Source: an uncultured Verrucomicrobiales bacterium
GTDB lineage: Bacteria; Verrucomicrobiota; Verrucomicrobiia; Limisphaerales; UBA1100
Length of the DNA stretch: 64,000 nt
Direction: 5' to 3'
Assembly: GCA_964013675.1 (NCBI GenBank)
Contig: CAXGXE010000001.1
Location: forward strand, 5,411 to 69,410
In this document: positions 35,550 through 37,841 of the stretch, piece by piece
Numbering within the stretch: the first letter of the stretch is position 1
Layout of the letters: each line of letters starts with the position of its first letter
The notes under the pieces: generated by a model
What the model was told of the DNA's origin: nothing
Seen by the model: the letters and a program-made list of their open reading frames with translations, nothing else
Databases searched by the model: none
Made by a program: the position numbers and the translations under genes

Positions 35550-35749
35550 CCTATCGGCACGTCCTCGACTCGTCTATTATAAAGTAAGCAATATATTATA
35601 GTCAGCAATAACATTATCTTTTCCAAGGTTGGTGGTTTTACGTGATTCTGTATCTCAGAGAACGATTATTTTGGGCATGGGGATAACCCGTGAATTGCCC
35701 GTGTATACGAAATAATAACTGCAACTTTGCGCGCGACCTTTTTGTGGTA

Positions 35750-36158
35750 GTTTCAATCCGTTGAGCGGATCTTCGGAATCGCTCGGTCAGCCAACTGACC
35801 ACGGGGATGCGACACCTCCAGAGGAATCTTCGGATGCCAAAGGAAATGTCACCCAGCCCTCCTCCGGGAGAGCTGATTCTCTCCGGCGATGTTCTCTCGG
35901 GAACATCGCCACGGACAACTTCTTCGGAAGGAGTCCACGAGGTTCACGCCTTCGGGCAGGGATTTCGGTACGAGAGGCAGAACCAAGTCCACGGCAGGCT
36001 CCTTTCGGGGAGACTGCTACTGGGCGGTCGGAAGGCAAGTGCCCTACCAAGGGCATTGACCTTCGAGCAAAAGCTCTCTCGGGAGCGGATGCGAAAAGGA
36101 TTGGTAGCCGCCCGGCGGTTGAGCTTCGGTTCAATCCAAGGGCGGCTTTTTTGTGTTT
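35750..36158 (+). ncRNA. unassigned, hairpin-dense structured RNA element (independent ncRNA or glyQS leader)
   Basis: A chain of at least 11 hairpins on the + strand. It has seven TTCGG pentamers (UUCG-type loops), a perfect 10-bp stem at 35885-35910, a recurring CC-ACGR linker, and a terminal GC stem plus U6. No credible ORF. The 5' boundary is uncertain. Confidence 0.6.
36107..36152 (+). terminator. intrinsic terminator closing the structured element, 49 nt upstream of the glyQS ATG
   Basis: gccgccc (36107-36113) pairs with gggcggc (36140-36146). The stem is extended by an inner ttgagc-UUCG-gttcaa hairpin (36119-36134) and followed by TTTTTT (36147-36152). Confidence 0.6.
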
Positions 36159-36200
36159 TGTTGACTTTTTTGGCGGTTTTCCCGATACACTCGCCGCCTC

Positions 36201-37841
36201 ATGGCACGGGATAATTCCTTGATGGATGCGATTGTGGCGTTGTGTAAACGCCGCGGGTTTGTGTTTCAATCCTCCGAAATTTACGGGGGCTTCAGTGGTT
36301 TGTGGGATTACGGCCCGCTGGGGGTGGAATTGAAGCGTAACATCAAGGAGACGTGGTGGCGCGATATGATCACCACACACGATGAGCTGGATCAGCCCGA
36401 GGGGGCACCGCGCCGGTTCCAGATGGTGGGCATCGAGTCGAGTGTCATCATGCACCCGCGCGTGTGGAAGACTTCTGGCCATTACGATTTGTTTCATGAT
36501 GAGATGGTGGATTGCCGGGAGACCAATAAGCGTTACCGGTACGATCATGTGAAAGGCCGCTGGGTGACGCATGAGGGTCGCCGGCTTTTTGTGACCACCG
36601 TGGGGGCTGATGATTTGCAGGCGGCTCTGCAGGAACGCGCGTTACGTTTCTTTGGCCTGAAAAACAAGTATGCCGATAAGCTGGAATGGGACGGTGAGAT
36701 TGTCGATCTGCCGACGGTAAAGGATCACACCGAGGTGTTGGGCCCGGACGCCAAGGAACTCGGCTCGCTCACCGAACCGCGGGAGTTCAATCTGATGTTT
36801 GAAACGCACGTGGGCGCGATGCGCAATGACGACAACAAGGCCTTTCTGCGGCCGGAGACGGCGCAGGGGATGTTTGTGAATTTTAAGAACGTGGTGGATA
36901 GCAACCGCGTGAAGGTGCCCTTTGGCATCGCGCAGCAAGGCAAGAGTTTCCGCAACGAGATTACGCCGCGCAACTTCACCTTCCGCAGCCGCGAATTTGA
37001 GCAGATGGAGATGGAGTTTTTCTGTCACCCGGAAGAATCCTTCAAGTGGTACACCTACTGGCGCGATCGCCGGTTCAAGTGGTACACGGATTTGGGGATC
37101 GATGCCTCCAAGCTGATTCTGCGTGATCACGAGCAGGACGAGCTCTCGCATTACTCGGTGGGCACGGCTGATGTGGAGTACGCGTTTCCGTTCTGCGAGG
37201 AAGGCGAATTCGGCGAGCTGGAAGGCATCGCGCACCGCGGCGATTTTGATCTGCGCTCGCATATGGAAGGCAAGCTCGTGCGCGAAGGCGAGGAGCTGGT
37301 GGTGGAAAAGGATGCTGAGGGGAACCCGAAATACCCCGGCAGTGGGAAGGATCTTACTTTCTTCGATGACGAAACGAAGGACCGCTTTGTGCCTCACGTG
37401 ATCGAGCCGGCCGCCGGAGCGGATCGCACGGTACTGGCGTTTATTTGCAATGCCTACCATGAGGAGACCATCACCAACGAAAAGGGCAAGGAAGAGACGC
37501 GCGTGGTCATGAAGTTTCACCCGCGCATTGCGCCGTACAAGGTGGGCGTCTTCCCGCTACTCAAGAACAAGCCCGAGCTGGTCGCTAAAGCACGCGAGGT
37601 TTGTAACCTGCTGCGCCCGCACATGGCGGTGTTTTATGATGAAGGCGGCGCCATTGGTCGACGCTATCGCCGCCAAGACGAGGCCGGCACGCCTTACGGT
37701 GTGACCATCGATTTCGATACGCTCGGCGAAAACGGCGATGAGTCCAAGGACACCATCACCTTGCGTGATCGCGATACCATGGAGCAAACCCGTATGCCCA
37801 TCAGCGAGCTCCTGCCGTTTCTGCTGGAGAAAATTCGGTAG
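36201..37841 (+). CDS. glyQS: glycine--tRNA ligase (class II, homodimeric alpha2 type)
   Basis: N-terminal RRGFVFQSSEIYGG...WDYGPLG, motif 2 FRNEITPRNFTFRSREFEQMEMEFF, and motif 3 region EPAAGADR. 546 aa. Confidence 0.95.
   Translation: MARDNSLMDAIVALCKRRGFVFQSSEIYGGFSGLWDYGPLGVELKRNIKETWWRDMITTHDELDQPEGAPRRFQMVGIESSVIMHPRVWKTSGHYDLFHDEMVDCRETNKRYRYDHVKGRWVTHEGRRLFVTTVGADDLQAALQERALRFFGLKNKYADKLEWDGEIVDLPTVKDHTEVLGPDAKELGSLTEPREFNLMFETHVGAMRNDDNKAFLRPETAQGMFVNFKNVVDSNRVKVPFGIAQQGKSFRNEITPRNFTFRSREFEQMEMEFFCHPEESFKWYTYWRDRRFKWYTDLGIDASKLILRDHEQDELSHYSVGTADVEYAFPFCEEGEFGELEGIAHRGDFDLRSHMEGKLVREGEELVVEKDAEGNPKYPGSGKDLTFFDDETKDRFVPHVIEPAAGADRTVLAFICNAYHEETITNEKGKEETRVVMKFHPRIAPYKVGVFPLLKNKPELVAKAREVCNLLRPHMAVFYDEGGAIGRRYRRQDEAGTPYGVTIDFDTLGENGDESKDTITLRDRDTMEQTRMPISELLPFLLEKIR

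Follow-up and report, generated by a model that had tools for sequence, protein, structure and literature searches.

The window, i.e., the whole 64,000-nt stretch of DNA analysed here, derives from an uncultured Verrucomicrobiales bacterium (GenBank assembly GCA_964013675.1, contig CAXGXE010000001.1, positions 5,411 to 69,410, forward strand). At 35760-36152 on the forward strand it carries the gene of a stand-alone structured small RNA (sRNA), which has a conserved promoter and an intrinsic terminator of its own. Upstream lies a gene for a BamB-like propeller protein on the opposite strand, and downstream a gene for a class II glycyl-tRNA synthetase (GlyRS), glyS (Table 1). In the alignment of copies, sequence conservation begins at CGTTGAGCGG and ends past the U-run; no similarity is left 3' of the U-run, and about 80 nt are kept 5' of the RNA. 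The sRNA stretch folds with -200 kcal/mol (z = -5.2 against shuffled sequences). As expected of a stand-alone sRNA, it has its own promoter, a covarying terminator, copies in varied contexts and RNA contigs that start at 35760. The original prediction had pointed to two hairpins (35785-35800 and 36040-36055) and to a UUGGU tract (36101-36105) directly 5' of the terminator strand, and all of these elements were recovered at these positions.

Table 1. Coordinates of the sRNA gene, its promoter, its predicted structural elements and the neighbouring glyS gene (positions in the window).
Feature	Position	Strand	Sequence or remark
Upstream promoter block	35679-35720	+	Conserved in 26 aligned promoters of three genera
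GTGAA-type direct repeats	35690-35694, 35701-35705	+	GTGAA and GTGTA, 11-nt spacing; from promoter alignment
AATAACT block	35714-35720	+	3' of the repeats; from promoter alignment
Core promoter	35725-35753	+	Conserved columns CTT.G and TG.TAgtTT
-35-like element	35725-35730	+	CTTTGC, then 17-nt spacer to the extended -10
Extended -10	35745-35746, 35748-35753	+	TG and TAGTTT; spacing read directly from the sequence
sRNA transcript	35760-36152	+	393 nt, long form of the family
P1 hairpin	35763-35784	+	GAGCGGAUC, UUCG loop, GAAUCGCUC; internal mismatch zone
P2 hairpin	35785-35800	+	GGUCAG-CCAA-CUGACC; stem covaries, A-U to G-C
Variable middle	35801-36023	+	Insertion relative to short forms in the copy alignment
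Pw helix	36024-36030 with 36057-36063	+	Encloses Px; 89% of cells paired, compensatory changes
Px hairpin	36040-36044, 36045-36050, 36051-36055	+	UGCCC, loop UACCAA, GGGCA; 98% paired
Pz helix (short) and Py hairpin	36064-36093	+	Py is GCUC (36073-36076) with GAGC (36083-36086)
Single strand and tract	36094-36106	+	Invariant AAAAGGA, then UUGGUA (36101-36106)
Intrinsic terminator	36107-36152	+	Outer stem, inner hairpin, U6
Terminator outer stem	36107-36113 with 36140-36146	+	GCCGCCC and GGGCGGC; 99.8% of cells paired
Inner terminator hairpin		+	GGUUGAGC-UUCG-GUUCAAUC; compensatory changes in 8 of 8 stem pairs
U6 run	36147-36152	+	End of the terminator
glyS promoter-like element	36161-36189	+	TTGACT (36161-36166), 17 nt, GATACA (36184-36189)
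glyS	36201-37841	+	Class II homodimer-type GlyRS, 546 aa; Pfam tRNA-synt_2b and HGTP_anticodon

A 153-aa open reading frame with a TTG start (35761-36222) traverses the whole RNA and continues into glyS. It was rejected as a coding sequence because the lengths of the copies cover all residues modulo 3 and the substitutions in the stems are compensatory. Judged by these features, the frame arises incidentally from structured, G+C-rich sequence and does not merit annotation as a gene.

A covariance model (R1) was built on the 3' domain of the RNA and used for a genome survey. The RNA was found in 27 of the 31 genomes of one Verrucomicrobia family, with 1-5 copies per genome. By genus, it was detected in 13 of 14 genomes of g1, 9 of 9 of g5 and 4 of 4 of g4, and in none of the two genomes of g2 and the one of g3. 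R1 gave no hit elsewhere in the order, which was sampled with about 148 genomes of 85 further families. The carriers are marine Verrucomicrobiales and Limisphaerales MAGs and SAGs. DNA searches of the relatives yielded at most 8 matching pieces per same-family genome, with many copies at contig ends; the 5' and 3' parts of the copies are conserved, and the middle is variable and mostly much shorter. A convergent gene follows the terminator in at least 8 contexts, other neighbours are unrelated, and no link of the family to aminoacyl-tRNA synthetase genes was found across the copy contexts. In Rfam searches, the window gave no match to any family for the sRNA (neither at the gathering score nor at E ≤ 10), and in 20 other copies no sRNA match was obtained at E ≤ 0.1; over window and copies together, the hits were confined to neighbouring tRNA genes and a tmRNA end. 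The RNA is not in Rfam 15, and no published description of it was found in a full-text literature search. The sRNA family is uncatalogued and multi-copy and, among the genomes surveyed, limited to one marine Verrucomicrobia family.

Some matches and neighbourhoods deserve mention on their own. Ten 20-mer matches outside Verrucomicrobia gave no model match and were discarded as chance. A 3.1-kb contig labelled Acidimicrobiaceae UBA9040 (L065, DMOB01000172.1) has the RNA in full (110 bits); it probably belongs to Verrucomicrobia and was mis-binned. A tRNA gene adjoins the sRNA gene in 4 of 20 loci (L005, L019, L032 and L097), and L005 also lies near the end of a tmRNA gene.

The 78 distinct full-length copies are 232-478 nt long and have up to about 12 hairpins. 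The variable middle consists of about 220 nt of UUCG/UCGG-capped hairpins in the window copy and of about 80 nt in most copies. The word CCACGR follows hairpins at 35799, 35909, 35935 and 35989, a number of occurrences (four) that was reached by none of 2000 shuffles. This recurrence points to duplication of hairpin-plus-linker modules as the origin of the ~150 nt by which the long form is extended.

In 76 distinct copies, the nested helices were paired in 82-99.8% of cells, against 29-50% in slid registers, and changes on both sides were seen in 26 of the 34 nested-helix pairs. Such two-sided changes were seen at every pair of Py (four) and of Pz (three), and the Px stem showed C-G to U-A exchange in 33 copies. 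The pairs of P1 (73 copies) were formed in 96-100% at the ends of the helix and in 56-82% in its middle, with C-G/A-U exchange. Nearly all other hairpins are capped by UUCG or GNRA; the loop of Px is conserved in sequence instead. Two further pairings were considered and dropped. A closing helix proposed by RNAalifold, between the 5' strand of P1 and AAGGAUUGGU, was rejected because the tract is fixed but the 5' strand is not (GGCUCUU, GGAUCUU, GGCUCUC and others), and because a pair is broken in 11 copies. A pairing of GGAUUGG with TTCAATCC (35752-35759) was rejected as well, since this word lies 5' of the contig start at 35760 and is not conserved.

Across copies, the -35-like element of the sRNA promoter reads CTT(T/G)G and the extended -10 reads TG-n-TA(G/A)(T/A)TT, and these features predict transcription to start at G35760. 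The repeats of the upstream block show an 8+3 periodicity, as OmpR/PhoB-type boxes do, and by this analogy the GTGAA-repeat block is likely a binding array for a response regulator of the OmpR/PhoB type. The repeats are also similar to CCTGTGAAaatCCTGTGAA, the optimal PhoR site of C. glutamicum (PMC3353115). The link to a phosphate regulon is a resemblance only: no PstS-type gene was found in the bacterium's own genome (87% complete), and no three-repeat promoter site was found elsewhere in it. Two-repeat sites in this genome number 10, against about 5 expected.

When the same genome was scanned with a position weight matrix of the promoter block, one further strong site was found, and it is the promoter of a sister sRNA (family B). 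This gene lies on the minus strand of another contig (G000 C215), with the promoter at ~2082 and the RNA at ~1990-1700; the family is also present in two other loci (L112 and L114). It has a GCCUC-CACCC-GAGGC hairpin and a two-tier terminator like that of the main sRNA, and it always follows a gene whose product ends in ...AAY(G/A/V)KK. A consistent loop-tract pairing was not found in family B (G000 C215, L112, L114). The promoter type is common to both sRNAs, and therefore at least two RNAs of this genome appear, by their promoter sequences, to be under the same regulator.

The sRNA is covered by RNA-library contigs from four marine studies. The contigs from two of the four start exactly at 35760, the predicted start, a weak hint at the 5' end of the sRNA, and no RNA-library contig of the four studies lies at 35600-35754. 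In addition, RNA-library runs of more than 10 studies contain one third to one half of the words sampled from a 751-nt stretch, 52% of which is the RNA. At 36127-36188, contigs are missing from three of the four runs, and the contig depths of the RNA and of glyS are orders of magnitude apart, figures that are not usable for termination efficiency or relative expression. In one oligo-dT library, overlapping contigs extend from 35760 past the terminator into glyS. In one run (X2), an RNA contig passes from 36024 directly to 35760, as a circularly permuted sequence of 265 nt would; this junction may come from a cycle in the assembly, from a ligation artefact or from a processed species with its end at the start of the 3' domain.

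The gene glyS is a neighbour of the sRNA and lies outside the RNA unit. Its promoter-like element is followed by a leader of 11 nt to the ATG at 36201, with no Shine-Dalgarno word, and the element is kept in five other genomes (G003, G018, G023, G008 and G020) across genera of the family. In three of these (G003, G018 and G023) the RNA lies elsewhere in the genome and glyS is preceded by other sequence, with TTGAC(T/A)-N17-GATACA and the 11-nt leader kept; in G012, another gene lies between the RNA and glyS. Since glyS has the same promoter without the RNA in relatives, the adjacency of the two genes is local synteny of a few g1 genomes. At one locus (L018, G020:C83), ~350 nt upstream of glyS (about 60-460 nt) read N, and an inverted repeat (CACAGAGACACAGAGAACACAG / CTGTGTTCTCTGTGTCTCTGTG) flanks them.

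This bears directly on the original prediction, which had read the RNA as a leader of the synthetase gene (glyQS), the CCA-containing loops and UGGU acting in the manner of a T-box or mimicking tRNA-Gly for GlyRS as in thrS. In T-box leaders, the UGGN bulge captures the NCCA-3' end of the tRNA, and the core consensus is UGGNACCGCG. The likeness to the T-box antiterminator (RF00230) is that UGGU lies directly 5' of the terminator 5' strand and has a complementary ACCA-containing partner; UUGGUAGCCGCC is similar to the T-box core and abuts the terminator, and the window copy stands 49 nt upstream of glyS. Beyond this the two differ, since the partner of the tract is an internal loop of the same RNA, the sRNA is a separate gene without linkage to amino-acid genes, and it is missing before glyS in the three relatives named above. 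No match to the covariance model RF00230 was obtained in the window (gathering score, E ≤ 10) or in the 20 other copies (E ≤ 0.1), and a Stem I specifier loop (GGC for Gly) in the sRNA is therefore unlikely. The sole antiterminator candidate, GGGCGG at 36022-36027, is the one sequence upstream of GCCGCCC in the window that is complementary to it, and it is missing from most copies, which have GGGGUY there; among the aligned copies, no conserved antiterminator helix competing with the terminator was found. The three tRNA-Gly genes of this genome (UCC, CCC and GCC) all end in gcUCCA, i.e., they carry U73, and this base is no pairing partner for the final U of UGGU; a glycine T-box needs UGGA, not UGGU.

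The thrS-like half of the idea fares no better, as the sRNA terminator ends 49 nt before the ATG of glyS, and glyS has its own promoter and 11-nt leader. The proposal that GCC in the first hairpin (P2) imitates the Gly anticodon fails because the P2 loop varies freely among copies and this GCC is not conserved. Nor does the Px loop resemble an anticodon loop, being mostly UACCAA and not UUGCCAA. We consider a leader function of either kind very improbable. The T-box and thrS readings are not supported, because the RNA is a stand-alone gene, glyS occurs with its own promoter and without the RNA, and tRNA-Gly carries U73; the likeness of UUGGUAGCCGCC is a resemblance only. In this lineage glyS is without a T-box-like or thrS-like leader, and the genome should not be annotated as if it had one.

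The original prediction had further proposed that an internal CCA loop could occupy the UUGGU tract, and the two loops behaved differently in the homologues. For the first loop (P2), the 63 parsed copies read CCAG (25), CCAA (18), UCAA (11), UCAG (7), CUAA (1) and CCGA (1), with the consensus YCAR, so that CCAA is not conserved in this loop. The P2 hairpin itself is real as far as sequence comparison can tell, because its stem covaries. All the loop variants are Watson-Crick or wobble compatible with UUGG and differ by transitions only, and P2, unlike most of the hairpins, has neither a UUCG nor a GNRA cap, so that its loop must be under some constraint (YCAR). A closed tetraloop cannot pair at all four bases, and the tract is not singled out by the data as the partner of P2.

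It has to be considered whether the tract might alternate between the P2 loop, the Px loop and the 3' strand of the inner terminator hairpin, and so tune the terminator and read-through into glyS. The compatibility of all six P2 loop variants (YCAR, CUAA and CCGA) with UUGG is consistent with such a switch, as are the contigs of the oligo-dT library that cross the terminator into glyS, and in the window copy GGAUUG can pair with CAAUCC (36133-36138). However, the closed 4-nt loop is unable to pair at all its bases, and the pairing with the inner terminator strand is not conserved, since this strand differs among copies (GUUGAAUCC, GUUUAUCUC, GUUCGCUUU and others) although the tract stays constant. 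Furthermore, most copies have no same-strand gene to regulate, and glyS has its own conserved promoter. We regard a switch of this kind as improbable.

The second loop (Px) gave a different result: it is conserved and complementary to the tract, and for this loop the proposal stood. The complementarity within a single sequence is not beyond chance, since shuffled copies contain on average 0.42 RCCAA words; the comparison of copies carries the argument. When 56 marine metagenome copies were retrieved by a pattern of flanking words, with loop and tract left free, the tract read TTGGTA in 56 of 56 and the loop N-R-CCAA in 56 of 56. Among 76 distinct copies, the core RCCAA:UUGGY (36046-36050 with 36101-36105) had a standard pair in 99.2% of cells, and pairing fell to 0.5-43% when the core partner was slid by 1-3 columns. 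The shuffle control for pairing (1 of 500) is inflated by the relatedness of the copies. In almost all copies, the distance of RCCAA from the 3' end is 101-113 nt. The divergent copies of g4 retain a CCACCAA loop together with the tract, and in long forms the distance between loop and tract exceeds 100 nt.

Pair by pair, the three central pairs of the core (C-G, C-G and A-U) are invariant in the 76 copies. A36050-U36101 is A-U in 72, G.U in 1 and other in 3, and R36046-Y36105 (pair 27-97 of the alignment) is A-U in 57, G.U in 15 and G-C in 4, without a single mismatch. A tract C occurs only opposite a loop G, in four copies of two lineages (L032/L092/L116 and L111), and the compensation from A-U to G-C within the core concerns one peripheral pair only, with about two independent events. 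A sixth pair, U36045-A36106, would be possible but is not kept, being open in 21 of 75 cells. In nested folds, the Px loop has a mean unpaired probability of 0.73 and the tract one of 0.44; nested thermodynamic folding is thus ambiguous on the tract, which is unpaired to 44% on average. Against the pairing also stands sister family B, in which no consistent equivalent was found.

These alignments make it somewhat probable that the loop at 36046-36050 pairs with the tract at 36101-36105 in the folded RNA as a 5-bp pseudoknot. They also indicate that the constraint on the tract exceeds the demand of pairing, because UUGGUA is kept whatever the change in the loop. It is here that another explanation gains some ground, namely that loop and tract are unpaired, each contacts an outside partner, and their complementarity is incidental; for example, AAAAGGAUUGGUA could be a seed or a protein site beside the terminator, with a further contact made by the ACCAA loop. 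Loop and tract are closer to invariance than a helix requires, the tract does not respond to changes at loop position 1, and the adjoining AAAAGGA is just as invariant without a clear partner. On the other hand, for two complementary invariant 5-mers at a fixed distance pairing is the simplest account, and the tract C is found only with the loop G. Moreover, sites complementary to the tract are no more frequent in the genome than expected (16 against 16), and genes for Hfq and CsrA were not found in the 87%-complete genome. Contact with outside partners in place of pairing is possible but, in our judgement, rather unlikely.

A regulated stand-alone sRNA with a loop-to-tail pseudoknot in its conserved 3' module is therefore the explanation that we prefer, and we hold it to be moderately probable. 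The RNA is made as a free-standing transcript from its own promoter, probably under the control of a response regulator, and ends at its own intrinsic terminator. Its Px loop RCCAA would pair with UUGGY, and the five loop-tract pairs could run straight on, stacked, into the terminator stem on the same strand. In this way the pseudoknot may join the terminator to the two arms, Pw/Px and Pz/Py, in a single compact module. The CCAA loop of P2 would be one YCAR variant, dispensable for the pseudoknot pairing. The 3' module would be the functional core, serving either as a docking surface for a partner or in the protection of the A/U-rich linker from nucleases. The limits of the gene, the existence of the family, its nested helices and the conserved, complementary sequences of loop and tract are shown by the comparison of copies; the physical pairing of loop and tract and the purpose of the fold are what we infer.

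In the genome-wide target search, the complements of the tract, the Px loop, the 5' end and P2 occurred in about the number expected by chance (16 against 16 for the tract). Neither Hfq (PF17209) nor CsrA (PF02599) had a match in the bacterium's own genome, which at 87% completeness does not prove their absence. As a working model, we suggest a regulated, trans-acting structured RNA with the pseudoknotted 3' module as a partner-binding or stabilising core. A more specific role, in which the RNA is a trans-acting sensor whose UUGGUA captures the ACCA-3' end of uncharged A73 tRNAs in a T-box-like manner, with the ACCAA loop as a built-in competitor, seems to us highly doubtful. If it were true, a principle of recognition like that of the T-box would have been transferred out of mRNA leaders to an sRNA that is free-standing and regulated.

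OmrA/OmrB, Qrr1-5 and RsmX/Y/Z are examples of sibling sRNAs that occur in several copies, have a regulated promoter in common and are conserved at the ends around a variable middle. The RNA described here is like them in having several paralogues per genome, common regulator sites, conserved 5' and 3' parts and Rho-independent terminators. In contrast to them, it is of far greater length and has more structure (232-478 nt, up to ~12 hairpins), it has no repeated GGA loops, no targets were found, and the 87%-complete genome yielded no gene for Hfq or CsrA. With H-type pseudoknots it shares the topology, the Px loop pairing with a 3' strand so that the new helix can stack on its neighbour; it differs in that the Pz/Py unit (~45 nt) stands between the strands and the stacking partner would be a transcription terminator. 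Orphan structured RNA motifs of the Weinberg type, e.g., Bacteroidales-1 and Acido-Lenti-1 (PMC5737381, PMC11109978), are likewise free-standing, found in one clade only and supported by covariation of their helices, without an assigned function. The present family differs from these motifs in its absence from Rfam 15, its restriction to one marine Verrucomicrobia family and its conserved, putative loop-to-tail pairing at the terminator.

The present analysis contributes a test of the pairing between loop and tract, the grounds for rejecting the tRNA-Gly/GlyRS reading, the anatomy of the promoter, the coverage by RNA contigs and the sister family. The regulatory RNAs of Verrucomicrobia, which are uncultured marine heterotrophs, are almost unexplored, and here a well-defined RNA gene family can be added to them. 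Within this RNA, the loop-tract region is the most conserved surface, and it is the place where a partner should be sought.
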